Position numbers and translations under genes: made by a program | Source: Oscillospiraceae bacterium | Lineage (GTDB): Bacteria; Bacillota; Clostridia; Oscillospirales; CAG-272 | Length of the DNA: 64,000 bases | Reading direction: 5' to 3' | Assembly (NCBI GenBank): GCA_015063685.1 | Contig: SVTR01000003.1 | Coordinates: 24,372 to 88,371, forward strand | Notes under the pieces: model-generated | What the model was told of the DNA's origin: nothing | Databases searched by the model: none | What the model saw: the letters and a program-made list of their open reading frames with translations, nothing else | Part shown: positions 5,572 through 27,394 of the stretch, in pieces | How positions within the stretch are numbered: position 1 is the first letter of the stretch | How the letters are laid out: the number at the start of each line of letters is the position of its first letter

Positions 5572-7177
5572 GGATTATCTCCTCCTTACGTACAATTTGG
5601 CCTCTTTCTTCACAGACGCACCGCTTTCTGCTTGCGTAAGCATCGGACGATAAACAGATAAGCCTCCCAGAATAAATAACACCATAATGACAGGAGATGC
5701 CCATATGGGGTTAAAGGTTGAGACAAACAGGAACACGATCAAAGAAGCTACCACCGCATTTTTTTCACTCTGAGAAACACTGTATTTCAAATGATACTTA
5801 ACGATATTCCAAATGAACTTCAAATAGAGGGCAAAGACGATCAGGCCGCAAGAGCTGATCAGATCCAGGTTGGTGGAATGGCCTGTGATCTTGGTATGAG
5901 GATTCCATGGGAAATTGCCTATGATCGGATGCTTCACGATCAATCCCCATGCCTCACGGTACAGGTCGAAGCGTCCCGTGGTCTGACCTTCCTCGCCGCT
6001 CTGCATATAGTAAACCGTTTCGTATATGCGGGTTGAAATATTATCGTTGGGAATCAGGTCTGCCAGCTCCAGAAGTGCCATTTCATACAAACCCGACTGA
6101 ATGAAAAAGACCAGGAACACGATGAAGGCGACCAAAAAGACGTTTCGCAATGTGGCATTTTTCAAATTCAAGAAAAGATAGCAACCGATACCCAGAACCA
6201 TGCCTACGATAGCAATGGTAAACGCGGCCATAAATACACAAACCATCATCAAGGCGATAATCAAACCTCTGAGCCAGCGATAGTGCTTGTTTTCTCCAAA
6301 AGAAGCAAAGAAATATGGGAGCAAGATGACCATACCATAAATTACGGCATAATCGGCCACCAAAGGATAGAAATCGCCTCTGTAGGCAGCACTTAGGCGG
6401 ATAGCCTCCGGGTTAACCACCAAAATACCAATGGACGCAATACTGACGACAGCGATCATGATCCACAGACAGCGTCGGATCCAAGTGATCATTTCCTCAT
6501 CAGATCTGGTGACAACCTGAACTGCGGAGATGATCATGGGCACCAAGGAAATCATGTGCCACACCTGAAGGGTAAAGGGCACGTTAAAGCTGGTGTAGAT
6601 CTCCCGCGATTGCCACACGAACTGATATTCAATTACGTAGATGAAAAGGAACAGGAACAGCGGCAACATAGCGATCTTCTTTCGGGTAATCTTTCCGTAC
6701 GCCAAAAGAAAATATACCATGAAAACATAATTCGCCACGATGACGCCGACGCCGCCCACAAATCTTGTGATATATTCCGTGACAATATTGAGAAGAAGGA
6801 ACGCGAGCCAGCAAAGGACCACCGCCTTATCCAACATGACACTACTTCGTTTTCTCATGAAATGCTCCAACTATTTTTGATAAACTGAATGATGCGCCCC
6901 GCCTGAGCCACGTGATTCTTCTCTGCCAGCACGAAGCTCCTGGCCTTCTGTCCAAAGGCCTCCAATTCTCGGCTGTCCCGATCCAGGGCTTGTCTCAAGG
7001 CTACAGCCAGGCCGTCCTCCCGGGTCTCATCAAAATAATATAAATATTCGTCATACTCATCGGGAAAGCCCGGTAGCTTGGCGCATAGCACGGGGGTTCC
7101 CGAGACCATGTATTCCATGGTTTTGGAGGGGAAAGAGTATTTCGTATATTCCCCTTCGCTCGTTCGGGGGTTGACCA
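4534..7177 (+). repeat. 2.64-kb direct repeat, copy 1 (other copy 23910-26553)
   Basis: Constant offset of 19376 bp; identical Wzy protein and identical shadow ORFs in both copies; scattered SNPs toward the edges. Confidence 0.95.
5575..6870 (-). CDS. Putative Wzy polymerase / O-antigen ligase family membrane protein
   Basis: About 11-12 TM segments; GRFDLYREAWGLIVKHPIIG...GHSTNLDLI resembles Wzy_C; lies between GT genes. Confidence 0.75.
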   Translation of the reverse strand: MEHFMRKRSSVMLDKAVVLCWLAFLLLNIVTEYITRFVGGVGVIVANYVFMVYFLLAYGKITRKKIAMLPLFLFLFIYVIEYQFVWQSREIYTSFNVPFTLQVWHMISLVPMIISAVQVVTRSDEEMITWIRRCLWIMIAVVSIASIGILVVNPEAIRLSAAYRGDFYPLVADYAVIYGMVILLPYFFASFGENKHYRWLRGLIIALMMVCVFMAAFTIAIVGMVLGIGCYLFLNLKNATLRNVFLVAFIVFLVFFIQSGLYEMALLELADLIPNDNISTRIYETVYYMQSGEEGQTTGRFDLYREAWGLIVKHPIIGNFPWNPHTKITGHSTNLDLISSCGLIVFALYLKFIWNIVKYHLKYSVSQSEKNAVVASLIVFLFVSTFNPIWASPVIMVLFILGGLSVYRPMLTQAESGASVKKEAKLYVRRR

Positions 7178-8024
7178 AAAGGGTGGCGTGAAGCTCGTCC
7201 TCCACAACCTCCGCGTTCGGACGAATGCCGAAGTAGCAGATCCTCGAATCCTCGGCGGCTATGGTTTGGATAGTATCGGCATAATCGCCGTCGCCGTAGA
7301 TATGCAGCTCCTCGTTATCCTTGCCAACAGCAATGAAAGCATCCACCAAGGCCGCGATCCCGTACTTCTTCTGCAGACCGCCCGCGTAGATGACGGTCTT
7401 TTTCTCATTTGAAAAATGTGCGTGATCGGCAGTGGCCATGTCCTTGTCTACGTGGCCTTCCAGCACGATATAGGGCTTGTGCTTTGGGTTGACCACAACA
7501 TCCATCTGTCGGGTCAGGAACACGTAGCCATCGGCCATGGCGAGCAGCTTTTGATTGATGGCCAGCTTGGTCTTTTTCTTGGTGCTACTGACAAATTCAG
7601 GCAGGTCGGTGACCAGGGCCACAGACTTACGTCCTCTCAGCCGAGCGCCCAGGGTTGCGCCCCAGGAGGAGGCCACGATCAGGGCGTCGTAGATCACCAC
7701 GGTGTCCTTTTTCGAAGTCAGCACCTTGAAGAAGGACTTGAAAAAGTTCATGCCATGCTTGACACCCTTGATATTCCACACCGAGATATACTGCTTTTTA
7801 AGGTGTTCGCTCTCAACCGTCGGCCATTTGGCATATTTTCTGGTGCTGTTGGCCTTGGAGATCGGCAGCGTGGTATAGGCGTGGACCCTTGCGCCGTTTT
7901 CTGCCAGTCCGCGGCACAAGAGCTGATGGTATTTATTTGAGGCAGGATGGGGCATTTTCCCCTTGTCAAACAGGGTATCCCGCATACCTTCCTCAAACAT
8001 AGCGGAAAAATATAAGATATTCAT
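6855..8024 (-). CDS. GT4 glycosyltransferase
   Basis: IYAGGLQKKYG, LLVNPR...YSFPSKTMEYMVSGTPV. Confidence 0.9.
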   Translation of the reverse strand: MNILYFSAMFEEGMRDTLFDKGKMPHPASNKYHQLLCRGLAENGARVHAYTTLPISKANSTRKYAKWPTVESEHLKKQYISVWNIKGVKHGMNFFKSFFKVLTSKKDTVVIYDALIVASSWGATLGARLRGRKSVALVTDLPEFVSSTKKKTKLAINQKLLAMADGYVFLTRQMDVVVNPKHKPYIVLEGHVDKDMATADHAHFSNEKKTVIYAGGLQKKYGIAALVDAFIAVGKDNEELHIYGDGDYADTIQTIAAEDSRICYFGIRPNAEVVEDELHATLLVNPRTSEGEYTKYSFPSKTMEYMVSGTPVLCAKLPGFPDEYDEYLYYFDETREDGLAVALRQALDRDSRELEAFGQKARSFVLAEKNHVAQAGRIIQFIKNSWSIS

Positions 8025-8222: not shown

Positions 8223-9209
8223 CTATTTGATCGCAGTCAACCAAGCGATGGGAGCCCGGAGAATTTTAATTTTGACAGCGATCAATTTCGCCAAAAGAAC
8301 CAGGAGATATACTATGATAAACGCTATGAACGGTCGGATTGCGGTCAGCCACGCCCAATCTACGCGGTTACAAAGATTTGCAACGATTCCGGCTATTGGC
8401 ATGTGGAGAAGATAGACCGGGAATGACAACCTTCCAATCTCAATCATAAAATTGCCTTTCGAGGTAGCTAAGGAACACACGCCGATAAAAAACAATATAC
8501 CTATGATAAAAATAAATTCATAAAGAAGCTTAGAGCTACGGTCCAAAACAAACAATCGAAGAATTGCCAAGGATATATATATACAGCCACAGGGGATCCA
8601 TATTTTTCCGGCAATACCTATGATTCTTTCCAATACACCATATTGAGCTATTAACAAACCGGCAGAAAAATACAGAAGAGCGTGCGGAATATCAAAAGAA
8701 GAAAACGCAAAACTAACAGAAAAGATATCTTCTAACACTTTCACAAGTAGCGAACCGCCCAGCGCAATCCATGTAACAACCTTGTTCTTGCGGAAAAAGA
8801 ACATTAAAAGATACAGAAGCAACAGTTCCGTCAAATAGTATAAATAGGTCTCAACCCCCAACAGCCATAACACATATGACAAGAGAGAGAGTCCACCTTT
8901 TCGAAGATATACATATAAATAGACAAGTGTTCCGCAAAAAAGCCAAGGAATACCTATGGTTTCCAGCTTTCTGAGCGTAAATTTCCCAAAGGTACGATGC
9001 TCATAAAACAAAAGGTACCCCGCAAATAAGAAGAAAATTGTTACACTAATGGCCATAAAGCCTCGCCACAACTGTGATACAGTCTGGTTTGCTACACCGG
9101 CATTTTCTCCTACAGCGGTAGAGTGAGCCGCGACTACCAGAAATATAGCGATTGCTTTCATTCTGTAAATCAGCTTTCCCGAGGCTTCATCAATTTTCAG
9201 TGGCATCAA
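8223..9209 (-). CDS. Acyltransferase_3 family membrane O-acyltransferase
   Basis: MKAIAIFLVVAAHS, FFLFAGY, IGRLSFPVYLLH motifs; multi-TM. Confidence 0.85.
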   Translation of the reverse strand: MMPLKIDEASGKLIYRMKAIAIFLVVAAHSTAVGENAGVANQTVSQLWRGFMAISVTIFFLFAGYLLFYEHRTFGKFTLRKLETIGIPWLFCGTLVYLYVYLRKGGLSLLSYVLWLLGVETYLYYLTELLLLYLLMFFFRKNKVVTWIALGGSLLVKVLEDIFSVSFAFSSFDIPHALLYFSAGLLIAQYGVLERIIGIAGKIWIPCGCIYISLAILRLFVLDRSSKLLYEFIFIIGILFFIGVCSLATSKGNFMIEIGRLSFPVYLLHMPIAGIVANLCNRVDWAWLTAIRPFIAFIIVYLLVLLAKLIAVKIKILRAPIAWLTAIK

Positions 9210-9634
9210 GGCCTCCCTCCTTTACATGCTTTTTTCACCTCATCAATCATTCTATAGATATTCTTCGGATCTCCATATTCGCCATATGTTCGGCAAGTAC
9301 ACAATCATCGTTTATGCCTGTGGCATCATATGCACATTGTCGCAAATGCATTTTTCTCTCGAAATTTTCTCTGCTTTCCCGATATGCGACAGGATACCAG
9401 CGTAAACATGGTGCTTGTACGCAATTTATGTTCTTTTACCGTTCAAAATCATGTTTATAGCAAAGTTGAAGAAAGGGAAAATGCTTTAAAGGTGGCCTCA
9501 GGGCCAGCTTCCTTTCTTGTTACCGTTTAATATGTTGTATACTTGCGGTAATTTATCGAAAAGTTTCAATTAATAAGTTGCATTAGGGGGCTAAAATACA
9601 TAATTTTTCGTTTTATTCGCCAAAAACAAACAAA

Positions 9635-9680
9635 AACCCATCATTCAACATATTATATCATAACAAACGAAAAATTGCAA
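9635..9680 (-). promoter_or_regulatory. sigmaA promoter, relic copy of the switch promoter
   Basis: Minus strand TTGCAA(9680-9675)-17bp-TATAAT(9657-9652); TATAATATGTTGAATGATGGGTT is identical to 43984-44006. Confidence 0.8.
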
Positions 9681-9871
9681 TAGCTTTTGTGATATTTCAT
9701 ACTTTTCTCATAAATTACCAGTAGATTTTTTCATTTCAAACAAGGGAATGAAGAACAAAGCAAATCCTCTTATAAAAGACTTTGTCATAGTTCTTTGCCG
9801 TAGGTTTCTCTTGCACAAAAATTTTCGGTTCCGCCTCTTCGCACAAACGATTGATCCCTCTATGATAGCCC

Positions 9872-9910
9872 AAAGGCCTTCCCAGCACCGAAAGCGAGGA
9901 AGGCCTTTTT
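9872..9910. terminator. Bidirectional terminator-like hairpin, homologous to 15903-15943
   Basis: AAAGGCCTTCC...GGAAGGCCTTTTT. Confidence 0.6.
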
Positions 9911-10008
9911 GACTTTGGTTATAGTTCATTTCATTCAAAAAATGAACATTATTTCTTCATACTTATACTATTTTATTACATCATCCGGATCAAAATGCAA
10001 AAACCGTT

Positions 10009-10179
10009 GGGCACCTCTAAATACTCAGCGTGCAGCGAGATGCGAGTTTTTTTCGTCAGACTAAAGGTCAGCTCTCTAAAAAAATCTTTCGCATAGTTGA
10101 CCCTATGCGAAAGATTTTTGTGACGTATGACGAAAAAAGCACCGTCATATCGGCGTACGATGAGTTTTTAGAGATGCCC
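10009..10179. mobile_element. MITE-like palindromic element
   Basis: Imperfect terminal inverted repeats GGGCACCTCTAAATACTCA / TGAGTTTTTAGAGATGCCC; internal 17-bp perfect stem AAAAATCTTTCGCATAG...CTATGCGAAAGATTTTT. Confidence 0.6.
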
Positions 10180-10287
10180 TTTAAGGTTATTCCATAATTC
10201 ATGCTATAACTGCCCCCGCAACACTCCAAAACCGTCTACCAAAGTGCCTTCAGGCCAGTCCAGAGCGCAACAGAAAATTGATGTTTT

Positions 10288-11433
10288 TCAGCCTGCCTCC
10301 GTCGGATATGAATCACCCCTAAGATGCAAGTAGTTCACATGACTTTGCACCATGTTTTCGATGGTGTATTCCCGGATCTTCTCCAGGCTTTGGGCGGCCA
10401 TTCGCTCCCGAAGATTGGTATCGGAGATCACAATGCTCAGCTTTTCCGCCAAAGCATCTGCGTCCTCTACAGGAACGACGTAGCCGTTCTTCCCTTCCTC
10501 GATCAGCTCCAGAGCCGCAATGCAACGGTTGGTAGAGATCACGGGCAGGCCATTGGCCATGGCTTCGTTGATCACCAGTCCCCAGATGTCCTCTCGGGTG
10601 GGCAGGACGAAAATATCGCAGGCGCGGTACCACTTTTTCAGCTCTTCCTTGGACATAAAGCCTATGAAATGGACGTTAGTAAGCCCCAGATCCTCCTTCA
10701 TGCGGAGGTACTCCTCGGTTGGCTCACCGCCGACGATGTAAATATCACAGGGCTCGCTCACCTTGGCAGCGGCTTGCAGGAGGATGTCGAAGCCTTTGCG
10801 TGGGATGAACTGACCTACGGTAAGGATAGCGCAGGCAGTATGGATACCCAGTTCCTTTTTTAGTTGTGCCTTGTACTCCAAAGTCGGTACTGTCAACGAA
10901 ATATCCGCTCTGTTCAAGGAGCTGAAGGGATATCGCAGTAGGCGCTCCTGAGGGATGCCCATTCGTGTCAGATAAGACTCCAGCTCTCGGCAGGTAATGA
11001 AATGGCCGCGAGCCGAGGTTAGCAAATATTTTTTATAGCATGCTTTGATAAAGGAATCCTTCTTGTCAAAGCCGCCGTCGTATTCGATGTAATAAGGAAT
11101 CTTTTTTCGTATACAATACGCAATTGCAGCACGAACTGACGGAGATGCATAGCCGGAAAAGATGACAAGGTCATAATCGGAAATTTTCAGAAGTTTGATC
11201 AATCCCCGGCCCTTGCTCCCTTCTTTTCTAAACGGTTTCAGGTCTGCGTATACTTCTTTGAAATGAATAGCGGCATGGCCAACCCACCTGTCATCACGAT
11301 CCTCGGCTTTTTTTCTTTCAAAAATTACCGTTAGATCGCACGATTGCCCAAGATAATTGAAAAAGTCCATTCGGTAGGGTGACGGCAAATTTGTAATAAA
11401 TAATATTTTTTTCATCCGGCTCTGTTTCCCCAT
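10288..11433 (-). CDS. GT4 glycosyltransferase
   Basis: VGQFIPRKG, DIFVLPTREDIWGLVINEAMANGLPV. Confidence 0.9.
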   Translation of the reverse strand: MGKQSRMKKILFITNLPSPYRMDFFNYLGQSCDLTVIFERKKAEDRDDRWVGHAAIHFKEVYADLKPFRKEGSKGRGLIKLLKISDYDLVIFSGYASPSVRAAIAYCIRKKIPYYIEYDGGFDKKDSFIKACYKKYLLTSARGHFITCRELESYLTRMGIPQERLLRYPFSSLNRADISLTVPTLEYKAQLKKELGIHTACAILTVGQFIPRKGFDILLQAAAKVSEPCDIYIVGGEPTEEYLRMKEDLGLTNVHFIGFMSKEELKKWYRACDIFVLPTREDIWGLVINEAMANGLPVISTNRCIAALELIEEGKNGYVVPVEDADALAEKLSIVISDTNLRERMAAQSLEKIREYTIENMVQSHVNYLHLRGDSYPTEAG

Positions 11434-11496
11434 TGAATAATGTTCTTTTTTGGCAAACTATAGGTAGCATTCATACGATAAATTTTTTTCAATACA

Positions 11497-12636
11497 TCAT
11501 CTGTTCTCTGCCTCGCCAAGACGCGCTTTTCCTTCGGCTTTTTTGTTTCGCGTCATAATCAGCTTATACATCCCTTCCAAATCTCCCACGTCCACCACGT
11601 TCTCCGGCGGCACGCTTTCCACGCTTCCACCGGTGCGGTAGGTCAGGCAAGGGGTTCCGCAGGCCTGAGCCTCAAGATTGACCGTAGGGTATGTATCCTC
11701 ATAAGTCAGATTAACAAACACATCTGACGCCGTGTAGATCTCGGCAAGCCGACGGGTACTGTCTGTACGGGTGATACTCAGGATAGCGGGAGGCAACTGT
11801 TTCTTCTGTGCCTCTGTCACACCCACCAAAACAATGCACTCGTCTTCGGAGAGTATGCCGGCCAGTTTTGCGAAATCACCCAAGCCTTTTTTGTCATTCC
11901 AGCCGCTGGCGACACCTAAAATGATCTTTTTTCCTTCAAGGTGATACTGTTGGCGGAAATTACTTTCAGTGGGCTTAAAGACAGATGTGTCAATGGTATT
12001 ATGACGAACCTCCACGGGGTATGCTCCCAAAAAGCTCTTTTGGGCAAGATCAGCCAGCCAATATGACGGAGTGATCAGCGTCATATTCGCAACACCTGTG
12101 AAGGCGGCCTTTTTCCGTTGATAATTTTGCTGACAGTTGTCTTTATAAGCAGCAGGATATTCTCTTGTTTCGGAGCATTTAACGCATCGGCTTTTCCATT
12201 GATCACACCCTGCGTAGGTAAAATGTGTGCAATGTCCCGTAAATGCCCAACAATCGTGAAGCGTCCATCTAACCTGCATCCGTGGGCGAGACTTGATCCA
12301 AGCAAAGAGCATTTCTACGTTGATATAGTAGCCGTGGAGGTTATGAAGCCAAAGAAGATCGGGGTCATAGGCTTCCGCCCAGGCAAGGAATTTTTTCGTT
12401 GCTCGCTTGTTGGCAAAGCCATGCTTATCTGTCAAGCGGGTATGGACAGCACTTATGCGGACATCCGCATCCGATCCGATCCGCACGGCATATCCTTGGT
12501 ACTTTTCGGGCACACCTTCTCTGCCGTAGGCGATCTTGACGGTATGTCCGTCCCTTTCAAATTCGGTAGCCAGATCTGTGCAGATCCGTCCCGTGCTGCG
12601 TATACCGCAGACCGAATTGATCATCAATATTTTCAT
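11497..12636 (-). CDS. GT4 glycosyltransferase (WcaC-like; paralog of 4372-5571)
   Basis: MKILMINSVCGIRSTGRI, WTLHDCWAFTGHC, EDTYPTVNLEAQACGTP; the start may be 12663. Confidence 0.88.
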   Translation of the reverse strand: MKILMINSVCGIRSTGRICTDLATEFERDGHTVKIAYGREGVPEKYQGYAVRIGSDADVRISAVHTRLTDKHGFANKRATKKFLAWAEAYDPDLLWLHNLHGYYINVEMLFAWIKSRPRMQVRWTLHDCWAFTGHCTHFTYAGCDQWKSRCVKCSETREYPAAYKDNCQQNYQRKKAAFTGVANMTLITPSYWLADLAQKSFLGAYPVEVRHNTIDTSVFKPTESNFRQQYHLEGKKIILGVASGWNDKKGLGDFAKLAGILSEDECIVLVGVTEAQKKQLPPAILSITRTDSTRRLAEIYTASDVFVNLTYEDTYPTVNLEAQACGTPCLTYRTGGSVESVPPENVVDVGDLEGMYKLIMTRNKKAEGKARLGEAENR

Positions 12637-12659
12637 TTGTGCTCCTGCGCCTTGATCAT

Positions 12660-13907
12660 TCAAGGCTCTTTTCTTTCCTGTGGCCGCAACAATTCATCCA
12701 CTAATTGTACGTATTTTTCAAGGCATCTTTCTTTTTCATATTTTTCAAGATATACTTCTCTGCAACGTTGTCCCATTTCACGGCAAATTTTAGGATTCTG
12801 TCGAAGGTGGATAAAGAACTCCGCAAGTCCGGATCCGTCTCCGCAAGCGAAGCATTTCCCAGCCCGACGATCCTCCAGATCCCTGGCAAGCTCGCTTTGA
12901 GGATCCATGATACACGCTACAGGGCGCCCCTGCATCATATATCCGTATGCCTTGGAAGGCGAACACAAGCCCAACAGCCCGTCGATCAAGCTGACGATAT
13001 AGCAATCACTAACACTCAGGGCAACCCGATAATCTTCGCCCTTCAAAAAGTCAAAACAAGCAACATTTGTCAAAGATTCTTGTTCTATAACGCGCTTCAG
13101 CTCTGCCATTTTATTTCCATGGCCGGCAAAAACAAACTTGATCTTGGGATCATCCTTCAATATCCGGATTGCCTCTAAAATCGTCGTTTCATCTTGGCAG
13201 GTACCCAAGTTCCCTAAATAGGAAACGACAAAATCATCTTTCTCAATATGTGAAAACAGCGGATGATACGCAATATCTCTCTTCGGGCTTTCTCCGTGAT
13301 CCTCAAACCAGTTGGGAATCTTGACAACACGGCACTCGGAGGAGATAGGGCGGTTATTCTCCAAATACTGTTTCATGTCATCGGATAGCGCAACAACACA
13401 ATCGGAAGCTTCAAATAATTGCCGGTTGATCCTTGTAAACATTTTAGTGATCATACTGCCTTCACCCAAAGCACCGCTCTGAAGGGCGATTTCAGGATAA
13501 ACATCGTACGAAACGAAGATCATTTTATTACCATATCTTTTTTTGGCAGTCACGGCCAGTTGAGGGAGGATCGGAGGGTTAGAATATACCATTACGGCCT
13601 TATATTTTCTTGCTTCCCGCAAGTTCAACCAAGTGGAGATGGTAAAGGAAAAATAATTGATCAATCTTCCCAAAAAGCCCTTTCGCCCCGTTTGAATATA
13701 CTTAATCCTTTTGATCTCGATACCCTCAAAAATTTCTCTTCTGGGTATCTTATGCTCTTCCGTATACTCCTTAGGATATCCACACAGGACACCTATCGAA
13801 TATCCTTTATCAGCCAGCGCCTTTGCCGTATCAAACGGCAAGGTTGCCGAAGAAACATACTCGGGATAAAAAAACTGACACATGATCAGTAAATCTTTTT
13901 TCTTCAT
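12660..13907 (-). CDS. GT4 glycosyltransferase (WbuB-like)
   Basis: QFFYPE, YDVYPE, YLGNLG, PSKAYGYMMQGRPV. Confidence 0.88.
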   Translation of the reverse strand: MKKKDLLIMCQFFYPEYVSSATLPFDTAKALADKGYSIGVLCGYPKEYTEEHKIPRREIFEGIEIKRIKYIQTGRKGFLGRLINYFSFTISTWLNLREARKYKAVMVYSNPPILPQLAVTAKKRYGNKMIFVSYDVYPEIALQSGALGEGSMITKMFTRINRQLFEASDCVVALSDDMKQYLENNRPISSECRVVKIPNWFEDHGESPKRDIAYHPLFSHIEKDDFVVSYLGNLGTCQDETTILEAIRILKDDPKIKFVFAGHGNKMAELKRVIEQESLTNVACFDFLKGEDYRVALSVSDCYIVSLIDGLLGLCSPSKAYGYMMQGRPVACIMDPQSELARDLEDRRAGKCFACGDGSGLAEFFIHLRQNPKICREMGQRCREVYLEKYEKERCLEKYVQLVDELLRPQERKEP

Positions 13908-13916
13908 GTCTGTCCC

Positions 13917-14765
13917 TTATTTGCGTTCGGTTCGTTCAACGGATTCCTCAAAAGATATCTCTCCGACAAGTGCGCGCACATCCTCTTGCGCATAGCAGTA
14001 ACTACCAAAACATTTAACCACGGCACCTATACGCAGACGTTTCCCCAAGCTGATCAAGGGATTGAAAATTTTGGGCGTCCATAACCTTATTCCATTTACT
14101 TTGGCAATTTGTCTGACCATATCTACAGTACTGACATATGCTTGATTTTGTGGCAACCAAATTCCGGGTAACAGCGTCATATCCGTAATTTGCTTAATAA
14201 AGCAGCACAGATGATCAATATAAATCATGCTTCGTTCGTTAGCATAATCAGGAAACACCTTGAATTTCTTGACAAATTTTGAAAGTGTCTGATAGTTGCC
14301 TTTACAATCCTTGCCATAAACCATCGGGGGACGAAGGATATAGACACCAAAATCTTCGCAGTCTAACTGCCGCAGTCCCTGTTCTGCCTGATATTTACTG
14401 ATACCGTAATGATTTTTAGGCGAAGGCTCCGATTCTTTGTTGATTATCCCTTCCTGCCTGCCGTATACACTCATGGTACTTATGTACACAAACTGCTTGA
14501 CACCGGCTCTTTTCGCTTTTTGCGCCATTCTGATGGGAAGATCTCGATTCACGCTGTAATAAAGCTCTGCGGGCGTCTTGCTTTTCCTGTGAACAATGCC
14601 TGCTACAAATAAAATACTGTCATAACCGGACAGATCTTTATTTTCCCACGCATTTTCTTCCATATCCACCGTATCCGTTTGATATTCAGCAGGAAACAAG
14701 CTCATGTACTCAGCGAATGCTGTACCTATATAACTTCTTGCGCCGGCAATCAATATTTTTTTCAT
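13917..14765 (-). CDS. NAD-dependent nucleotide-sugar epimerase/dehydratase
   Basis: GARSYIG Rossmann motif, STMSVYG, YGISK (YxxxK), RPPMVYG. Confidence 0.9.
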   Translation of the reverse strand: MKKILIAGARSYIGTAFAEYMSLFPAEYQTDTVDMEENAWENKDLSGYDSILFVAGIVHRKSKTPAELYYSVNRDLPIRMAQKAKRAGVKQFVYISTMSVYGRQEGIINKESEPSPKNHYGISKYQAEQGLRQLDCEDFGVYILRPPMVYGKDCKGNYQTLSKFVKKFKVFPDYANERSMIYIDHLCCFIKQITDMTLLPGIWLPQNQAYVSTVDMVRQIAKVNGIRLWTPKIFNPLISLGKRLRIGAVVKCFGSYCYAQEDVRALVGEISFEESVERTERK

Positions 14766-15400
14766 TTATTTACGGTCTCTTTCTCTTTTTCCTGCTTTTT
14801 CCGCTCGATCTCACCCGTGCCGCCTTCCACCACGCCATCGGATTTCAGAACGCTCTTGATGGTGCCGAAGAAGCACTTGCAGTCAAAGCCGAAGCTTAAT
14901 TTCTCCACGTACTCACCGTCCAGCTTGGCCTTGACGGGAATGGGCAGCTCATCGCGGCCGTTAATCTGTGCCCAGCCGGTAAGGCCAGGCTTGACGTCGT
15001 TGGCACCGTACTTGTCCCTCTCCTCGATGAGGTCGTATTGGTTCCACAGGGCAGGGCGGGGGCCGATGATACTCATAGTGCCGGCAAAAATGCAAAAAAG
15101 CTGAGGCAGCTCATCGATGGAGGATTTGCGCATAAACTTCTGCCACTTGCTAAGAAAAGCATCCGGATTTTTCAGCTCATGGGTGGGAGTGTCCTTGGGA
15201 GCGGTGACGGGCATACTTCTGAATTTCAAAATGGTGAAATGTTTTTTATGTATGCCGATCCTCTTTTGCTTGAATAAAACGGGGCCGGGAGAGTCAATCT
15301 TGATGATGATGGCAAAGATCAGCATAGGCAGTGCTAGAACCAAAATCCCCAAAAATGATAAGAGAATATCAATCAATCTTTTTACAAAATGCTTGTACAT
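14762..15400 (-). CDS. Initiating phosphoglycosyl (bacterial sugar) transferase, locus B
   Basis: KRLIDI, KFRSM, SIDELPQL, GPRP, KPGLTGWAQINGR. Confidence 0.93.
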   Translation of the reverse strand: MYKHFVKRLIDILLSFLGILVLALPMLIFAIIIKIDSPGPVLFKQKRIGIHKKHFTILKFRSMPVTAPKDTPTHELKNPDAFLSKWQKFMRKSSIDELPQLFCIFAGTMSIIGPRPALWNQYDLIEERDKYGANDVKPGLTGWAQINGRDELPIPVKAKLDGEYVEKLSFGFDCKCFFGTIKSVLKSDGVVEGGTGEIERKKQEKEKETVNK

Positions 15401-15509
15401 AACACCTCACATCCCGCAGTCAAAACTCCATGCGGAATCATCAGCTACAGAATATTTTTCTTTTTCCCGTGCGCTGTATGTAGGCTCGGATTTTCCGGGA
15501 AAGAACGCA

Positions 15510-15620
15510 TCAGGAGGAAGAGAGATAATGGGGGTAGATTCCTGCCGCTCTGCCGATTTCGGAGAGCATAGCGTCAGCGGTTTTATATGACGTTTGATTG
15601 TGCTCAAACAACACGATCAT
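15510..15620 (-). pseudogene. N-terminal stub of the SF2/HA helicase
   Basis: MIVLFEHNQTSYKTADAMLSEIGRAAGIYP matches MIALFEHNQTAYEAAVAMLSETGKAAVIHP (43713) at 21/30 residues, then diverges and stops before Walker A. Confidence 0.85.
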
Positions 15621-15653
15621 CACGTTCCTTCCCGAAAAAACGGTACGTCCACC

Positions 15654-15890
15654 GGGTACAGCACAACGGGGATTATGTCGCTCCATGTGAAAGAAAATAA
15701 TAACCCATCATCTAATATATTATAGCATATCCCATAAAGGATTGCAATAGTTTTCAAGAAATTTATAGGATTTTCTCATAAATACCCAAGCAAATTTGGG
15801 TGTTATTTTCTTCAAAAAGCACAACGAAAGAAGGCTACCGCATTTTTTTTGAGAAAGTTGGGCTCCGGATTCTCTTGTTACCCTTTTTTA
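15654..15890 (-). promoter_or_regulatory. Decayed invertible-promoter cassette fixed in ON orientation
   Basis: Degenerate site ACAGCACAA-CGGGGA-TTATGTCGC (15658-15681; 19/24 to IRL); promoter TTGCAA(15747-15742)-17bp-TATAAT(15724-15719); the rest is similar to the reverse complement of 43820-44026; no partner site seen. Confidence 0.85.
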
Positions 15891-15902
15891 CATTTTCTAT
15901 AG

Positions 15903-15943
15903 AAAAAGGCCTTCCTTGTACCGAAAGCAAGGGAGGCCTTTTT
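15903..15943. terminator. Bidirectional terminator-like hairpin
   Basis: AAAAAGGCCTTCCTTG...CAAGGGAGGCCTTTTT. Confidence 0.65.
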
Positions 15944-16064
15944 AACTTTGGTTGTAGTTCATTGCGCTCAAAAAATGAATATTCTGTTAACTTTCAAAAA
16001 TTTTCAATTTTACTGCAATTTTTTGGCGATTCAGTTGTTATAAAGGGTGAAAGGAGGTGAGAAA

Positions 16065-16481
16065 ATGAAAAAGCGTTTTAAGATCCTGTCTATGGTTATG
16101 GTTATTGTAACGGTGCTGATGTGTACGGCAATGCCTATTCAGGCGGCTGTTGTGCAACCGGACGTGGAGCCGATGTGGGATAATACGGCAACGATAACAC
16201 TGACATTGGGTTTCCCCGATTATGGTTATGCGGAAGCTTCAATTTTTGGTAAACCCGGGGTTACAAAAATTATCATTGATGTATTTGTTTACAGACAATC
16301 CGGTAGTTCTTGGATTTATGTTAACGAAAAACACACAACCATTAATAGTCAAGCAGGTTTGATCAGTTGTCAATTTACTCCCGTCGATGGTGCATATTAT
16401 CGTGCTGACTACACATTTACTGTTACGAAAGATGGAGTTGATGAGGTCATTAACAAATCACAATATCGTACATGTGAATAA
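16065..16481 (+). CDS. Secreted hypothetical protein
   Basis: Strong RBS AAGGAGGTGA before ATG 16065; signal peptide MKKRFKILSMVMVIVTVLMCTAMPIQA. Confidence 0.8.
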   Translation: MKKRFKILSMVMVIVTVLMCTAMPIQAAVVQPDVEPMWDNTATITLTLGFPDYGYAEASIFGKPGVTKIIIDVFVYRQSGSSWIYVNEKHTTINSQAGLISCQFTPVDGAYYRADYTFTVTKDGVDEVINKSQYRTCE

Positions 16482-16500
16482 TTATCTCTTCTTAATCAAA

Positions 16501-16531
16501 GGGGTGTTACTCTTAAACGAGTAACACCTCC
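16501..16531. terminator. Hairpin between convergent genes
   Basis: GGGGTGTTACTC-TTAAAC-GAGTAACACCTCC. Confidence 0.65.
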
Positions 16532-16536
16532 CATAA

Positions 16537-17253
16537 TCATTCAATTACACTAATCCCTTCGCCAATTTTCACAATCTCATTCATTGAGGAAAACACACCA
16601 TATACAGTAAACCGATAATGTTCATCTTGCCACGTCAATGAATATAACGACTCTCCTTCAAAGTACTCAACAAGAACAGCTTTAAATCCATTAACTTCTA
16701 TATAAGCAACTTGCCCTGACTCATCATCTACAAATGTATTTGACTCCGTTATTGTGCTTTGTGTAGCAAAAAACTTCCAGTCTCCACTATCAGTATAATA
16801 AAAAATCTGATGTTGCATAGATGTGGTAACATCGTCTCCTTTAACACACCCTTCCGGCACATACGTTAATGCCATCTTTTTCTCAATGGTCTCAGGGTAG
16901 TTCTCGGCAGGGGGCTCCGTGGGCGCCTCGGTTTCCACATCCGTATCAAATCCAATCTCAATATGATCTCCGTGGTTCTTAATCAGGACATTCCACACGG
17001 CGTGTCTAATCTCGGGAACCAGCATACAGGCGGTAAAAGCGACGGACATACACAGCAACGCCACTAATAGGATGAGCTTGACGGTCTTCCATCTGCTTTT
17101 GCGGGATCTGCCCAGAATCCTTCGCAGCACCCGAGGATCTCGCTCTATTCCGGAAACATCCTGCCCCGAAAAGGCAGACGCTTCTTCCTTCACACAGTCC
17201 GCAGCTGCCAAAGAAATCAGGGTATCAAATCTGTCAATATGTAATTCTTTCAT
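16537..17253 (-). CDS. Putative anti-sigma factor (DUF4367-like, single TM)
   Basis: Overlaps the 3' end of the ECF sigma gene; one TM helix; LTYVPEG...YIEVNGFKA...LTWQD...EIVKIGE pattern. Confidence 0.7.
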   Translation of the reverse strand: MKELHIDRFDTLISLAAADCVKEEASAFSGQDVSGIERDPRVLRRILGRSRKSRWKTVKLILLVALLCMSVAFTACMLVPEIRHAVWNVLIKNHGDHIEIGFDTDVETEAPTEPPAENYPETIEKKMALTYVPEGCVKGDDVTTSMQHQIFYYTDSGDWKFFATQSTITESNTFVDDESGQVAYIEVNGFKAVLVEYFEGESLYSLTWQDEHYRFTVYGVFSSMNEIVKIGEGISVIE

Positions 17254-17824
17254 ACCCTTCCTTTCCGATGATCTCTTTCAGTTTATTTTTGGCGCGGTAA
17301 ATGTGACTGTTTACCGTATTCTCTTCTATACTCAAAATACCGGCAATTTCCACATTTCTCATGTGATAATAATATTTTAAAACGATTACGTCCTTAAATC
17401 TGTCATTCAACTGGTCAATGGCGTTTTTCACAATATGAATCGTCTCGTCATTCACCACCAGCGTTTGGGGATTCTCTTGATAACAAGCTGAGCAATCGAC
17501 TGTATTTTCCTGATTAAAATCAAAATTTATATCGAACACTTCCCGTTGCTTCTTTTTATGCTTGTACATATTAAGAGCAACATTTCTTGTATAAATACTG
17601 ACCAGCGCCGCCAGATCCTCACGCTCAAAATTCATAAACGTCTTCACGTTTTCGGAGATGAGGCGAAAGGTCTCCATAACAGCGTCCTCGGCATCCTGTT
17701 GATGGTGGAGAATACTATTGGCTTTGACTATCATCTGCTTATAGTACAGATAATAAATCCGCTCCACCAGTTCCCTTTCCTCGTCGCTTTCGATCGCTTG
17801 GATGAGCTCCAAAATCATCAGCAT
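17234..17824 (-). CDS. ECF-type RNA polymerase sigma factor
   Basis: DAEDAVMETF (region 2); IVLKYYYHMRNVEIAGILSIEENTVNSHIYRAK (region 4). Confidence 0.92.
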   Translation of the reverse strand: MLMILELIQAIESDEERELVERIYYLYYKQMIVKANSILHHQQDAEDAVMETFRLISENVKTFMNFEREDLAALVSIYTRNVALNMYKHKKKQREVFDINFDFNQENTVDCSACYQENPQTLVVNDETIHIVKNAIDQLNDRFKDVIVLKYYYHMRNVEIAGILSIEENTVNSHIYRAKNKLKEIIGKEGYERITY

Positions 17825-18744: not shown

Positions 18745-20043
18745 CTACTGTTTTTCTTCCCTTTCGGCAAATAGTTCCCTCAACACCCTCGGATTCAGTG
18801 CCTTGAGCATCAACAAGTTGTTTCTACGGATAGGCTTGAAAATGGCCCCCACGATCACGTTGGTGAATATCTGGGTGATGAGAGAGGCCAGAGCCGCGCC
18901 ATTGATGCCCCACTTAGGGATCATCAGGGTATTCAGCGCTACGTTGGCCAAAGCCCCCGCAAGATTGATGCTCCACAGATATTTCTGCTTGTTTTCGGCA
19001 AGCATCCAGATGTTTCGAACCGCGCCAAGATAGGAAAACGTGGTATACCACACGATGATCCTCAGGGCATTGACGGCAGGCGCGTAGGCGTCACCGTAGA
19101 TGATGTAAATGATCTCTTTGGAAAAGACGGTGATCAGGAGGCATTGAATCAAGGATAGCCATATGATGACCGAGTAAAGGCCGGTGACGTTCTTTTCAAA
19201 CTTCTCCGAGCTTGTTTTTTTGCTTTCATAGATCACGGGGCTGACGGAATCCAAAATTGCTGAAAAGACAAAGCTTGTCATGCTGGCGCACGTCACGGCG
19301 GCTGCGTAAAAGCCGGCGGCATCCGCACCCAGCATGGGCTTGATCATCAGCTTATCGGTTTGAGCGAAGATCGAGACCATGAGGCCTGACAAAATATAAT
19401 ATTTTCCGCTCTTCAGGAGCCTTTTGGCATAGTGTCCGGAAAAGGCGAAGGGTGCTCCGCCCTTTTTCTTATACAGGACGAATAATACGACCGCCGTCAC
19501 GGCATAGTCGATGGATTGTGCCAGAGCAAACCACCTGACATTCATGCCGCCAATCAGCAAAGCGACGCGATAGACAGAGATCACGACGTAAGCGATCAGT
19601 CCGATAACCGACGAGTACCTCGACATAAGCTTCGCCTGGTACCAGTACCGGATATTCTCCAGGGTACGGAAAATCAAGGAAATGCTATAAAGCAGACAAA
19701 CAACGACGGTTTCCTTTTCCCCCGGGTTCATGATTGCCGCAAAGGCGGTAATCCCCAGAATACCCAGTATGGAGGAGATCAGCCCAAGAGTTGTCGCTGT
19801 GCCCAAAATCTTACCCTCATCCTCGGGATGAGAGACCAGCTTTTGCACCATCACCTCGGTCAACCCAAGATTCACAAGAGGCGCGATAAAAGCGACAATG
19901 GACGCCGCGTAATTGATGATCCCGTAATTGGAGGGTCCAAGGTATCTTGCAGTAAACATCGTAATGACCAGGGAGAGCAGGGCTTGTACTACCCTGCAGC
20001 CCACGATCCATGAGATGTTACTGACCATTCTATTTTTTATCAT
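18745..20043 (-). CDS. wzx: Wzx-type flippase (locus A; close paralog of 2903-4204)
   Basis: Same motifs; long identical peptide stretches with 2903-4204. Confidence 0.9.
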   Translation of the reverse strand: MIKNRMVSNISWIVGCRVVQALLSLVITMFTARYLGPSNYGIINYAASIVAFIAPLVNLGLTEVMVQKLVSHPEDEGKILGTATTLGLISSILGILGITAFAAIMNPGEKETVVVCLLYSISLIFRTLENIRYWYQAKLMSRYSSVIGLIAYVVISVYRVALLIGGMNVRWFALAQSIDYAVTAVVLFVLYKKKGGAPFAFSGHYAKRLLKSGKYYILSGLMVSIFAQTDKLMIKPMLGADAAGFYAAAVTCASMTSFVFSAILDSVSPVIYESKKTSSEKFEKNVTGLYSVIIWLSLIQCLLITVFSKEIIYIIYGDAYAPAVNALRIIVWYTTFSYLGAVRNIWMLAENKQKYLWSINLAGALANVALNTLMIPKWGINGAALASLITQIFTNVIVGAIFKPIRRNNLLMLKALNPRVLRELFAEREEKQ

Positions 20044-20074
20044 TTTAAAATCATTTATGTCTTCACCATTATTA

Positions 20075-23738: not shown

Positions 23739-24947
23739 CTACAATCCATTATATAAATTCACATATTTTTTAAAGCAATTACACTTATCAAAATCATATA
23801 TACACCAATTTTGAGACCTCACAGAATATGTTTTTTTCTCCAAAATACAGATAATTCCTTTTTCCATCGCAACTACATCACCCTTCTCTACAACAATGCC
23901 ACTATCGCGATCCAAAATTTCCGGACACCCTCCGGTACGGAAGGCGACAACCGGCGTGCCGCAGGCCAGGGCCTCCATTTGCACCGTGGGGTAGTTCTCT
24001 TCCCTGGTAGGATTGACGAACACATCCGCGGCCGTATAGATCTCCGCCAGCTCCCGTTGGTTCTCGGTTCGATGGATGGAAATAACGTTGTTCGGCAGTT
24101 GGCGGTCAATTTGCTCATTCGTCCCCACCAACACGATGCGGTAGCTGTCATCCAGCCGCTTAGCGAGCTCCAGGAACACGTCAAAGCCCTTTTTCTTGTC
24201 CCACCCGAAGGAAACACCCAACACCAGCTTTTTGCCCTCGCAGTGATATTTCCGACGGAAATCGCTTTCGGTGGGCTTGAAAACCGTGAGGTCAATGCCG
24301 TTGTTGATGACCTTTACGGGATAATCCTTCAGGAAGGATATTCGCGTCAAATCGGCCAGCCATTGGGATGGGGTGACCAACGTCATATCCGCTACACCCT
24401 TGAACCAGGCTTGCTTCTGACCATACTGCCGCTTGGAATTATCCACCCGGCACTGGGGGTATTCCCTGAGCTGAGGACAATCATGGCAGCCTGTTTTCCA
24501 CTTGTCACAGCCGATCATGTCGAAATGGGGGCAATGGCCGGTAAAGCTCCAGCAATCGTGGAGGGTCCAGATCACTTTGATCTTGTCTTTTTTGATGTAG
24601 TCAAACAAGGTTGGCAGGTGGATACAGTAGCCGTGCAGGTTGTGCAGATGCAAAAGCTCGATCTTTTGAGCACGTAATTCTTTGACAAGCTTTTTTGTGC
24701 CCCGCTTCATGTAGCAACCGTCCAAGCCGAATACACGCCCCAGAAGGTTCCCCGCCCGACGTTCGGCCCAAGTGCCGAAATAGGCATGTCCGACCGGGGC
24801 ATCGGGACACTTTTGATACTTTTTCGAAAAGGGGTACGGTGAATAGGTATAGACCTCATGGCCGTGAGATCGGGCCTGCTCCGCGATTTGGAGCATGATC
24901 CGACCGGTACTGCCGAAGGTCACTGCGTTGATCTGTGCGATACGCAT
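23739..24947 (-). CDS. GT4 glycosyltransferase; near-identical to 4372-5571 except the C-terminal ~55 aa
   Basis: Direct protein comparison; diverges after GGCPEILD. Confidence 0.9.
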   Translation of the reverse strand: MRIAQINAVTFGSTGRIMLQIAEQARSHGHEVYTYSPYPFSKKYQKCPDAPVGHAYFGTWAERRAGNLLGRVFGLDGCYMKRGTKKLVKELRAQKIELLHLHNLHGYCIHLPTLFDYIKKDKIKVIWTLHDCWSFTGHCPHFDMIGCDKWKTGCHDCPQLREYPQCRVDNSKRQYGQKQAWFKGVADMTLVTPSQWLADLTRISFLKDYPVKVINNGIDLTVFKPTESDFRRKYHCEGKKLVLGVSFGWDKKKGFDVFLELAKRLDDSYRIVLVGTNEQIDRQLPNNVISIHRTENQRELAEIYTAADVFVNPTREENYPTVQMEALACGTPVVAFRTGGCPEILDRDSGIVVEKGDVVAMEKGIICILEKKTYSVRSQNWCIYDFDKCNCFKKYVNLYNGL

Positions 24948-26553
24948 GGATTATCTCCTCCTTACGTACAATTTGGCCTCTTTCTTCACAGACGCACCGC
25001 TTTCTGCTTGCGTAAGCATCGGACGATAAACAGATAAGCCTCCCAGAATAAATAACACCATAATGACAGGAGATGCCCATATGGGGTTAAAGGTTGAGAC
25101 AAACAGGAACACGATCAAAGAAGCTACCACCGCATTTTTTTCACTCTGAGAAACACTGTATTTCAAATGATACTTAACGATATTCCAAATGAACTTCAAA
25201 TAGAGGGCAAAGACGATCAGGCCGCAAGAGCTGATCAGATCCAGGTTGGTGGAATGGCCTGTGATCTTGGTATGAGGATTCCATGGGAAATTGCCTATGA
25301 TCGGATGCTTCACGATCAATCCCCATGCCTCACGGTACAGGTCGAAGCGTCCCGTGGTCTGACCTTCCTCGCCGCTCTGCATATAGTAAACCGTTTCGTA
25401 TATGCGGGTTGAAATATTATCGTTGGGAATCAGGTCTGCCAGCTCCAGAAGTGCCATTTCATACAAACCCGACTGAATGAAAAAGACCAGGAACACGATG
25501 AAGGCGACCAAAAAGACGTTTCGCAATGTGGCATTTTTCAAATTCAAGAAAAGATAGCAACCGATACCCAGAACCATGCCTACGATAGCAATGGTAAACG
25601 CGGCCATAAATACACAAACCATCATCAAGGCGATAATCAAACCTCTGAGCCAGCGATAGTGCTTGTTTTCTCCAAAAGAAGCAAAGAAATATGGGAGCAA
25701 GATGACCATACCATAAATTACGGCATAATCGGCCACCAAAGGATAGAAATCGCCTCTGTAGGCAGCACTTAGGCGGATAGCCTCCGGGTTAACCACCAAA
25801 ATACCAATGGACGCAATACTGACGACAGCGATCATGATCCACAGACAGCGTCGGATCCAAGTGATCATTTCCTCATCAGATCTGGTGACAACCTGAACTG
25901 CGGAGATGATCATGGGCACCAAGGAAATCATGTGCCACACCTGAAGGGTAAAGGGCACGTTAAAGCTGGTGTAGATCTCCCGCGATTGCCACACGAACTG
26001 ATATTCAATTACGTAGATGAAAAGGAACAGGAACAGCGGCAACATAGCGATCTTCTTTCGGGTAATCTTTCCGTACGCCAAAAGAAAATATACCATGAAA
26101 ACATAATTCGCCACGATGACGCCGACGCCGCCCACAAATCTTGTGATATATTCCGTGACAATATTGAGAAGAAGGAACGCGAGCCAGCAAAGGACCACCG
26201 CCTTATCCAACATGACACTACTTCGTTTTCTCATGAAATGCTCCAACTATTTTTGATAAACTGAATGATGCGCCCCGCCTGAGCCACGTGATTCTTCTCT
26301 GCCAGCACGAAGCTCCTGGCCTTCTGTCCAAAGGCCTCCAGCTCTCGGCTGTCCCGATCCAGGGCTTGTCTCAGGGCCACGGCCAGGCCGTCTTCTTGGG
26401 CATCATCAAAATAATATAAATATTCGTCATACTCATCGGGAAAGCCCGGCAGCTTAGCGCAAAGCACGGGGGTTCCCGAGACCATGTATTCCATGGTTTT
26501 GGAGGGAAAAGAATATTTCGTGTATTCCCCTTCGCTCGTTCGGGGGTTGACCA
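23910..26553 (+). repeat. 2.64-kb direct repeat, copy 2
   Basis: Matches 4534-7177. Confidence 0.95.
24951..26246 (-). CDS. Putative Wzy polymerase, identical to 5575-6870
   Basis: 431 aa, identical translation. Confidence 0.75.
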   Translation of the reverse strand: MEHFMRKRSSVMLDKAVVLCWLAFLLLNIVTEYITRFVGGVGVIVANYVFMVYFLLAYGKITRKKIAMLPLFLFLFIYVIEYQFVWQSREIYTSFNVPFTLQVWHMISLVPMIISAVQVVTRSDEEMITWIRRCLWIMIAVVSIASIGILVVNPEAIRLSAAYRGDFYPLVADYAVIYGMVILLPYFFASFGENKHYRWLRGLIIALMMVCVFMAAFTIAIVGMVLGIGCYLFLNLKNATLRNVFLVAFIVFLVFFIQSGLYEMALLELADLIPNDNISTRIYETVYYMQSGEEGQTTGRFDLYREAWGLIVKHPIIGNFPWNPHTKITGHSTNLDLISSCGLIVFALYLKFIWNIVKYHLKYSVSQSEKNAVVASLIVFLFVSTFNPIWASPVIMVLFILGGLSVYRPMLTQAESGASVKKEAKLYVRRR

Positions 26554-27394
26554 GCAACGTTGCCGTTAACTCAGCCTGCACAACCTGCTGGTTAGGAAAA
26601 CAACCATGATAGATCACTTGGGGATGAAGCTTGGTAATCTCCCGAAGCTCGGCAGCATAACCACCGTTACCATAGAGATGCAACTCCTCGTTCTCCTTGG
26701 CAATCTTCAAAAAAGATTCCACCAGATTGGCGACACCATATTTACGATAAAGGGCACCTGCGTACATGACGACCCTCTTCCCTGCTTTGGGGCGGGGACG
26801 CGTCACATCCGACATACGGACATCGGCGTGTCCTTCCAAAACTACATAAGGCTTTCCTTGAGGGTTGATCACTTCATTCATTTGCTTCGTCAGAAAAACG
26901 TATCCATCTGCCATACTGATCAGCCGATGATTTATGCGGTTGCATTTTGGGCTACTGTTAACGTACATTGGCAGATCCGTTACAATGCCCACACTTTTCA
27001 TGCCTCTAAGTTTAGAAGCCAGCAAAGCACCGAAGGATGATGAGATCACCAGCACATCATAAATCACGACAGTGTTCTTGGCAGAAAAGAGGGTCTTAAA
27101 AAAAGCTTTACTCGCCAACATAAAATGCTTGACCCCTGGGAAATTTATACATGAGATATACTGCTTTGTCAGTTTGCCGTCTGTTGTTTTTCTCCACCTT
27201 ACGATCTTCTTGGAGCTATTTGCTCGGGAAATTGGCAATGTGGCATAAGCATTTACAGAGATTCCATTTTCAGCCAAACCCAAGCTTAACAGTTGGTGAT
27301 ATTTATTGGCCGCATAATTCGGTGTCTTTCCTTTGTCATAATAGACATCAAGGATCTCGTCATCAAACATGGCAGACAAATATAAAATGTTCAT
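26231..27394 (-). CDS. GT4 glycosyltransferase; C-terminal ~107 aa nearly identical to 6855-8024
   Basis: Direct comparison; shared from LVNPRTSEGE onward. Confidence 0.9.
   Translation of the reverse strand: MNILYLSAMFDDEILDVYYDKGKTPNYAANKYHQLLSLGLAENGISVNAYATLPISRANSSKKIVRWRKTTDGKLTKQYISCINFPGVKHFMLASKAFFKTLFSAKNTVVIYDVLVISSSFGALLASKLRGMKSVGIVTDLPMYVNSSPKCNRINHRLISMADGYVFLTKQMNEVINPQGKPYVVLEGHADVRMSDVTRPRPKAGKRVVMYAGALYRKYGVANLVESFLKIAKENEELHLYGNGGYAAELREITKLHPQVIYHGCFPNQQVVQAELTATLLVNPRTSEGEYTKYSFPSKTMEYMVSGTPVLCAKLPGFPDEYDEYLYYFDDAQEDGLAVALRQALDRDSRELEAFGQKARSFVLAEKNHVAQAGRIIQFIKNSWSIS

Follow-up and report, generated by a model that had tools for sequence, protein, structure and literature searches.

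Organization of the polysaccharide region

The window analysed here is a 64-kb stretch of contig C43 in a 2.72-Mb assembly (57 contigs, 93% complete) from a lineage of spore-forming gut Clostridia. From position 43713 down to 3 its minus strand contains mainly polysaccharide biosynthesis genes, arranged in two regions, locus A and locus B. The gene order in locus A is helicase, aminotransferase, acetyltransferase, Bac_transf, glycosyltransferases, Wzy and flippases. Locus B is composed of two blocks separated by a 1.08-kb gap (9210-10287), the first running from 15400 and encoding a Bac_transf protein, an epimerase and three glycosyltransferases, and the second encoding an acyltransferase, a glycosyltransferase, Wzy, a further glycosyltransferase, a flippase and LicD. 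The first intact gene of locus B codes for the initiating sugar transferase (Bac_transf; 14762-15400, minus strand; Pfam PF02397, E 8e-56), and this protein is only 40% identical to the Bac_transf protein of locus A. All of the operon genes that follow have intact reading frames and normal Pfam matches. According to Pfam there is no polymerase or flippase gene in the first half of locus B and no initiating transferase gene in the second, so that the two halves are complementary in gene content and probably specify one polysaccharide from the two fossil promoters described below.

Parts of this neighborhood are repeated. A 2.7-kb segment encoding a glycosyltransferase, Wzy and a glycosyltransferase is common to both polysaccharide regions (4534-7210 and 23910-26586) with 97.5% identity, which indicates that module shuffling is recent and frequent and that the neighborhood is a mosaic. 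The flippases at 3002-4201 and 18847-20046 are 70% identical.

The live switch at the head of locus A

Upstream of locus A is a live switch (switch A, 43753-44050) in which perfect 25-nt inverted repeats (43753-43777 and 44026-44050) enclose 248 nt. Each repeat is itself a small palindrome, with 9-nt arms flanking an asymmetric 6-nt spacer, as is typical of the core sites of tyrosine recombinases. The segment contains a single strong promoter, TTGCAA-17-TATAAT with a TG, on the plus strand; as this points away from the minus-strand operon, switch A is OFF in the assembly. The adjoining gene (44086-44925, minus strand) encodes a 279-aa tyrosine recombinase (Pfam PF00589, E 6.6e-24) that is intact and, from its translation, has the catalytic motifs R, H-x-x-R, H and Y. 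It is the sole copy of its type in its own genome (one match at E<=1e-40), and its closest named relatives are in metagenome-assembled genomes of uncultured Clostridia and Oscillospiraceae from animal guts. Two terminator-like hairpins accompany the switch. The first, at 44058-44079 on the plus strand, lies where a transcript from the OFF-state promoter runs into it, and would end such transcripts ahead of an antisense run into the recombinase gene; the second, at 43808-43792 on the minus strand, would keep recombinase transcripts from continuing into the operon.

The first gene of locus A (41530-43713, minus strand) codes for a full-length helicase of 727 aa with ResIII/DEAD, Helicase_C and four HA domains (Pfam). 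It is present in a single copy in the genome, and the end of the gene is overlapped by the aminotransferase gene. An SF2 helicase with four HA domains heads the switch operon in three genomes (41530-43713 in the window, 7177-9258 in L023 and about 150-2300 in G006:C40), its gene end overlapping the biosynthesis gene that follows, and polysaccharide operons do not usually begin in this way. That it has a regulatory role like that of UpxY is only a guess by analogy, and a search of the open-access literature for 'helicase associated domain' gave nothing, among the matches listed, on a helicase-HA first gene in front of a polysaccharide operon.

A diverged copy of the switch at the head of locus B

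BLAST comparison of 15300-16100 with 43300-44300 reveals that the sequence at 15531-15889, just upstream of locus B, is a diverged paralogue of switch A (76-78% identity). We refer to it as relic B. There are two alignments. In the first, 15531-15678 matches 43624-43773 on the same strand (118/152 positions, 78%, E 4e-29) and takes in the leader and left repeat along with the start of the helicase gene. In the second, 15658-15889 matches 44050-43820 on the opposite strand (177/233 positions, E 5e-45) and comprises the repeat plus 208 nt from the inner segment, in reverse. The two meet inside the repeat, which is exactly the junction expected once switch A inverts, and the same junction recurs in the self-comparison of the window. 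An earlier note, made from the letters of the window, had recognized this ON-state junction at the head of locus B and proposed an alignment with an inverted switch A as its test; both alignments bear it out, the similarity continuing well beyond the promoter (232 nt in the opposite-strand alignment). Recognizable inverted sequence amounts to 232 of 298 nt, slightly more than the 'about 200 bp' originally given.

Reading toward locus B, the components of relic B are a promoter-bearing segment in the ON arrangement (15682-15889, minus strand, homologous to 44026-43820 in reverse), an orphan core site (15658-15681), a leader with the ribosome-binding site GGAAGGAAC (15621-15657, minus strand, homologous to 43714-43752) and a helicase stub (15510-15620, minus strand). 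The spacing between site and promoter segment is preserved: AACCCATCA lies at 15702-15710, at exactly the 20-nt distance that had been noted, and 15658-15797 aligns with 44050-43911 without gaps.

The promoter of relic B, TTGCAA-17-TATAAT with an extended -10 TG (TTGCAA-17-TGnTATAAT; 15719-15747, minus strand), faces the stub and the operon. Its -35 element is at 15747 and its -10 element ends at 15719, placing the predicted transcription start near 15712. The core of this promoter is identical to that of switch A at 28 of 29 positions, as against 65-84% in the adjoining stretches, and the hexamers, the spacer length and the TG are the same in A, in B and in a second relic, C (see below). The excess of identity in the core and its recurrence in C argue for selection on promoter function, and it seems that selection has maintained the promoter as the parts needed for switching drifted. 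The leader also contains a weak terminator-like hairpin (15654-15641), which could lower output. Rfam gave no match at E<=0.1 across 9000-16600.

The helicase stub is a 36-codon open reading frame, and its first 30 codons are homologous with the beginning of the locus A helicase. The cut after 30 codons had been recognized from the letters and is confirmed by tblastn, residues 1-30 matching at 20 of 30 positions (E 2.4e-9); the last 6 codons are unrelated, and the stop precedes the P-loop or GTGKS motif seen in A. The 16 nucleotide differences are distributed over the three codon positions as 5, 5 and 6, and this even spread, small as the numbers are, suggests that the stub is without visible coding constraint and pseudogene-like. 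It ends 110 nt from the first real gene. The junction piece at 15401-15535 has no significant similarity within the window (best E 0.38), and the comparison did not locate the far end of the deletion by which the helicase was lost.

An orphan core site without a partner

The sequence GGGT-ACAGCACAA-CGGGGA-TTATGTCGC at 15654-15681 had been picked out earlier as a decayed crossover site, and the comparison is upheld at the same figure: its 24-nt core, in which a 6-nt spacer separates two 9-nt arms, agrees with the left repeat of switch A (43753-43776) at 19 of 24 positions, and the GGGT flank is common to both. The matches are divided as 7/9 and 7/9 in the arms and 5/6 in the spacer. Arm-to-arm dyad symmetry is 9/9 in A and 5/9 in B, with two independent changes in each arm of B, as would be expected of a site that has lost its function. 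Nonetheless, the site fits the family consensus at 12 of 14 specified positions and its right-arm hexamer is intact, so the recombinase of switch A may still bind it.

No second site accompanies it. First, a search with the 24-nt pattern allowing up to three mismatches finds only the two sites of switch A, with 0 expected, and there is no partner for the B site within three mismatches on either strand of the 2.72-Mb assembly. Second, the family consensus with up to two mismatches occurs at four places in the 64 kb where 0.82 are expected, and these are the two sites of A, the B site and one place within a gene at 23350. A chance origin of the B site is excluded on these counts. Third, there is no inverted partner or distal site in the region near B, and the tail of relic B has no likeness to the distal end of A in the ON state (score 7.5, reached by 638 of 1000 shuffles); its resemblance to the flank upstream of the recombinase is weak (55 of 1000 shuffles reach the score). 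Fourth, tblastn of 15380-16080 and 9150-10320 finds no recombinase remnant, all recombinase rows having E >= 0.8. In the whole genome the sequence of switch A is matched only at A, B and C.

Relic B thus has one site, no recombinase and a truncated first gene, and cannot invert by itself. Paired sites and an adjacent recombinase were both sought and neither was found, which places it outside the live inverton family; what it has of an inverton is the outward promoter inside the segment, together with homology to a complete member. It is a putative locked derivative, homologous to a switch and carrying a lesion that removes the parts needed for inversion.

The flank beyond relic B

Next to relic B is a G+C-rich hairpin, terminator-like on both strands (15903-15943), followed by the conserved upstream region (15944-16064, plus strand) of a gene for a small secreted protein with its ATG at 16065. 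Contigs from two other samples, runs X7 and X10, agree at about 99% with 15904-16100 (1 difference) and 15904-16121 (2 differences), respectively; in both the match ends exactly at 15904, and the records run on for 15 and 135 letters. The hairpin is therefore where a conserved flank gives way to a polysaccharide region that varies between strains. The earlier note had the distal site and recombinase replaced by a terminator hairpin: the absence of both stands, and the replacement is doubtful, the hairpin being the left edge of the strain-conserved flank.

Within this flank 15996-16040 is kept, at 85%, upstream of the orthologous small gene in G006, a genome of the same genus. Here a half-site-like sequence, GGCGATTCAGTTGT at 16025-16038, lies in direct orientation to the relic site and matches the right half of the repeat at 12 of 14 positions; such matches number four in the 64 kb against 0.61 expected. 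Moreover, the tail of relic B at 15961-16039, which includes it, resembles in direct orientation the helicase start, leader and left repeat of A (score 15.0; shuffled sequences average 8.4 with SD 1.4, and 1 of 1000 reaches the score). The resemblance may be fortuitous, or it may mark a relic of still greater age or a pseudo-site, and the direct orientation is not accounted for by simple decay. A similar sequence lies upstream of the small-gene orthologue in G006, which has no locus B.

A second relic within locus B

The gap between the two blocks of locus B contains a second relic (relic C, 9622-10009). Its promoter segment in the ON arrangement (9622-9729, minus strand) is 79% identical to 44019-43910 on the opposite strand (E 1e-13) and has the same TTGCAA-17-TATAAT promoter with TG, on the minus strand at 9680-9652. 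This is followed by a copy of the B hairpin module (9872-9950; 86% over 79 nt against 15905-15983) and by a copy of the sequence upstream of the recombinase in A (44940-44993; copied at 9953-10009, 86% over 57 nt). The recombinase open reading frame itself is absent in spite of this kept upstream sequence, and the proximal site is no longer recognizable. Locus B is, on its layout, a pair of predicted promoter-headed units with two fossil promoters, of which the one at C had escaped the earlier note.

Relics B and C are colinear from the promoter through the hairpin module. As the module is common to both, freezing probably occurred once and before duplication, and the simplest history is probably one loss of the recombinase and then duplication of the frozen head.

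Relic C is adjoined by a palindromic dispersed repeat of about 170 nt (10009-10180). In its own genome 40 of 144 candidate copies were scored, all with 83-100% identity on one strand, and its summed contig depth is very high in runs X5, X6, X7 and X10.

Arrangement in independent samples

The 15400-16100 interval is mostly present in six runs, four of them possibly the source. Four runs were compared over 9000-17600, X5 and X6 (non-source) and X7 and X10 (small share), all as contig sets; contigs drop rare variants, and the uncovered parts of 9000-17600 in X7 and X10 are uninformative. A 775-nt contig from X5 covers 15440-16214 with 0 differences, and contigs from X6 cover 14869-15514 and 15658-16316 with no difference. 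B-specific letters in X5 and X6 occur in the arrangement of the window only, minor forms being beyond what contigs can show.

The only strand-switch joint near B (15632 | 15797) is present in one contig each of X5 and X6. At all 10 of the 10 variant places listed these contigs have the letters of A, which identifies them as locus A in the OFF state aligned onto its paralogue; locus A is OFF in the assembly, in X5 and in X6. A fossil paralogue is thus a source of false 'inversion' joints when sequence from a live switch maps onto the relic.

Related switches in other genomes

Homologous recombinases (51-64% identical) adjoin pairs of inverted repeats with the core ACATAA..TTATGT around roughly 200-300 bp. 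This layout is seen at all 7 loci within the genus and at 10 of 13 loci in other genomes, the three misses being L033, L035 and L026, in which only 120 nt are available beyond the recombinase gene. The presence of core-type repeat pairs beside homologous recombinases at 17 of 20 loci indicates that the site belongs to the recombinase. Tandem copies of the repeat arm, two or three at roughly 31-nt spacing, occur at L017 (2360, 2391, 2422) and L027 (5725, 5756, 5787), and further tandem repeat-arm switches at L034 (3256, 3291, 3323) and L030-L032. These suggest that multi-site inversions with alternative end points may take place.

The ON orientation, for which relic B had been offered as internal evidence, exists elsewhere. 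An intact homologue at L023 (genome G045) combines a recombinase and two repeats with a helicase that is 71% identical; the inner segment is inverted relative to that of A (score 33.5 as against 21.0 in the other sense; 0 of 300 shuffles reach 33.5) and the best promoter-like site faces the helicase. In G006 the start of contig C40 falls within a homologous segment, in the ON sense and beside the helicase (79% nucleotide identity, with the repeat identical over 21 nt). The contig runs out 120 nt beyond this, and a cognate recombinase is missing from the assembly; G006:C40 may be either a live switch in its ON state or a further relic.

The earlier note had also proposed to look for relatives with an intact switch at the position of B. 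None was found, and a DNA search of 41 relatives' genomes returned only short pieces in G006, G011 and G032. The match in G011 (TTGCAA-17-TATAAT, 84% over 37 nt) was considered as a relic and rejected, as it is the ordinary promoter of an unrelated small gene. With the L023 switch as query for further fossils, G045 and G006 yielded nothing beyond the switch itself and one promoter-like match of 35 nt. Among 28 other genomes of the genus only G006 has an orthologue of the small flanking protein. This protein has no relative in the genome contig search, and its one metagenome match is a 2.6-kb contig, too distant and too short to be informative, with no switch-like sequence in the 450 nt upstream. 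At the position corresponding to B, G006 has a different hairpin, tRNA-Gln, MarR and ABC genes and no polysaccharide locus; the ABC orthologue in the genome studied here is on a different contig.

A proposed history and its alternatives

The structural reading of the earlier note is supported by the sequence comparisons on three counts: the alignments, the absence of a partner site or recombinase remnant, and the layout of the intact relatives. We read 15510-15889 as a switch copy that has become fixed in the ON state, with an orphan site and a 30-codon stub, and give this structural and evolutionary reading a probability of about 0.8. A switch of the family of A would have been captured with its promoter facing the operon, and would have lost its mobility when the distal site and the recombinase gene disappeared and the helicase was cut short after codon 30. 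This would leave an ordinary fixed sigma-70-type promoter driving the sugar transferase and the glycosyltransferases: RNA polymerase would start near 15712 and cross a leader of roughly 90 nt containing the orphan site, and the transcript would then span the 36-codon stub with its ribosome-binding site, the 110-nt spacer and the operon from 15400. The promoter of relic C would restart transcription near 9645 and drive the half of the locus with the acyltransferase, Wzy polymerase and flippase. With nothing able to flip the B or C promoters, expression should be constant, and locus B is rather probably transcribed actively and constitutively. Locus A would toggle with its recombinase while locus B stays fixed. 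As to the order of events, we infer one freezing followed by duplication, in place or imported. The divergence of B from A (22-24%) is as large as that between species (A and the G006 switch, 79% identity), and a head that was frozen before module shuffling brought it in would fit this as well as decay in place does.

Four other accounts were weighed. The ON-state head could be a portable promoter module, copied at least twice in front of new polysaccharide blocks, possibly by the recombinase acting at pseudo-sites and not by plain homologous recombination. This fits in that B is bounded by the core-site relic on one side and the direct half-site-like sequence at 16025-16038 on the other, and in that the half-site-like sequence pre-exists upstream of the small gene in G006 where there is no locus B. 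On this account the recombinase of A could also still bind the orphan site in the transcribed leader, which would couple the output of locus B to the switch machinery; we regard the account as unlikely.

The relic may alternatively be silent, with its promoter or leader dead or its transcripts terminated at the leader hairpin (15654-15641), so that locus B would be silent or driven from elsewhere. The terminator-like character of that hairpin is in keeping with this, and the stub frame could uncouple translation from the first real gene 110 nt downstream. However, a dead promoter would hardly be expected to keep a core at 28/29 between flanks at 65-84%, or to have its hexamers, spacing and TG retained in C as well, and the operon genes all have intact frames and normal Pfam matches. 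Silence is, on this evidence, quite unlikely.

Highly improbable, in our judgment, is the opposite polarity of events, in which B and C are ancestral heads that were never invertible and switch A arose by gaining an inverted copy of the leader and a recombinase. Similar fixed promoter cores are found elsewhere in the genus (e.g. in G011), and no intact switch was found in relatives at the position of B, as such a history would have it. Yet B contains a two-armed core site of the type that lies beside recombinases at 17 of 20 loci, for which a never-invertible leader has no need, and the dyad symmetry of this site is degraded (5/9 against 9/9 in A). Furthermore, C retains the recombinase-upstream sequence without the gene, and B retains a truncated helicase start without coding constraint.

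In strand exchange by tyrosine recombinases identity of the spacer is normally required. The notion that B is still switchable, through an unrecognised partner or through the right repeat of A (44026-44050, inverted relative to the B site and 28 kb away) with large inversions or promoter exchange as the outcome, can draw on the 12/14 fit and intact right-arm hexamer of the B site, on the intact recombinase of A and on the three tandem arms in some relatives, which imply that multi-site reactions exist in the family, but it is the least credible of all given that there is no partner within three mismatches in the assembly, that the A sites differ from it at 5 of 24 positions with one of these in the 6-nt spacer, and that B-specific sequence has no other joining in the contigs of four runs (a weak test).

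Relation to known switches

The recombinase of the capsule promoters of B. fragilis is the serine recombinase Mpi. The present system differs from that one in organism and in recombinase family, which are unrelated, and in its first genes, which are UpxY/UpxZ there and a helicase here. Invertible and fixed promoters are nevertheless mixed in both: PMC11685472 describes the PSC promoter as non-invertible and constitutively ON among the invertible capsule promoters, an arrangement of 'seven invertible plus one constitutive', and the phase-variable and fixed polysaccharide promoters of the window are similarly combined, with locus B a candidate 'default' polysaccharide. The fixed promoter of B still shows its origin from a switch; for PSC there is no such statement in the portion of PMC11685472 available.

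Promoter invertons with an adjacent Xer-like tyrosine recombinase occur in gut Clostridia, an example being 'inverton group 139', which is linked to 'invertase group 35' (PMC11892184). Compared by layout, switch A and its relatives are like these, with inverted repeats of roughly 13-25 nt, a promoter segment of 200-250 bp and an adjoining tyrosine recombinase; relic B is unlike them in having one site, no recombinase and a truncated first gene. A closer precedent for the lesion is fimS of E. coli O157:H7, which is locked OFF by a 16-bp deletion (PMC6765310). In both cases one orientation of a tyrosine-recombinase promoter switch has been fixed by a lesion of natural origin, for fimS throughout a lineage. 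Relic B differs in being locked ON, in having lost a whole site and the recombinase gene, and in the duplication of its head for a second unit. Of the papers listed in searches of the open-access literature, none has a title or abstract that indicates a decayed or ON-frozen, duplicated inverton relic, and none is described in the accessible parts of PMC11892184, PMC11685472 and PMC11294581.

By homology and layout, relic B is a putative naturally locked-ON derivative of a known switch family, and mechanistically ordinary. Inverton finders based on inverted repeats will overlook such derivatives. The relic constitutes internal sequence evidence for how phase-variable surface polysaccharides evolve, in that a switch frozen ON appears to have been reused as a promoter, twice. 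The outcome is a genome with one switchable and one probably constant polysaccharide locus, a parallel to the capsule set of B. fragilis in an uncultured gut lineage of Oscillospiraceae type with an unrelated recombinase.
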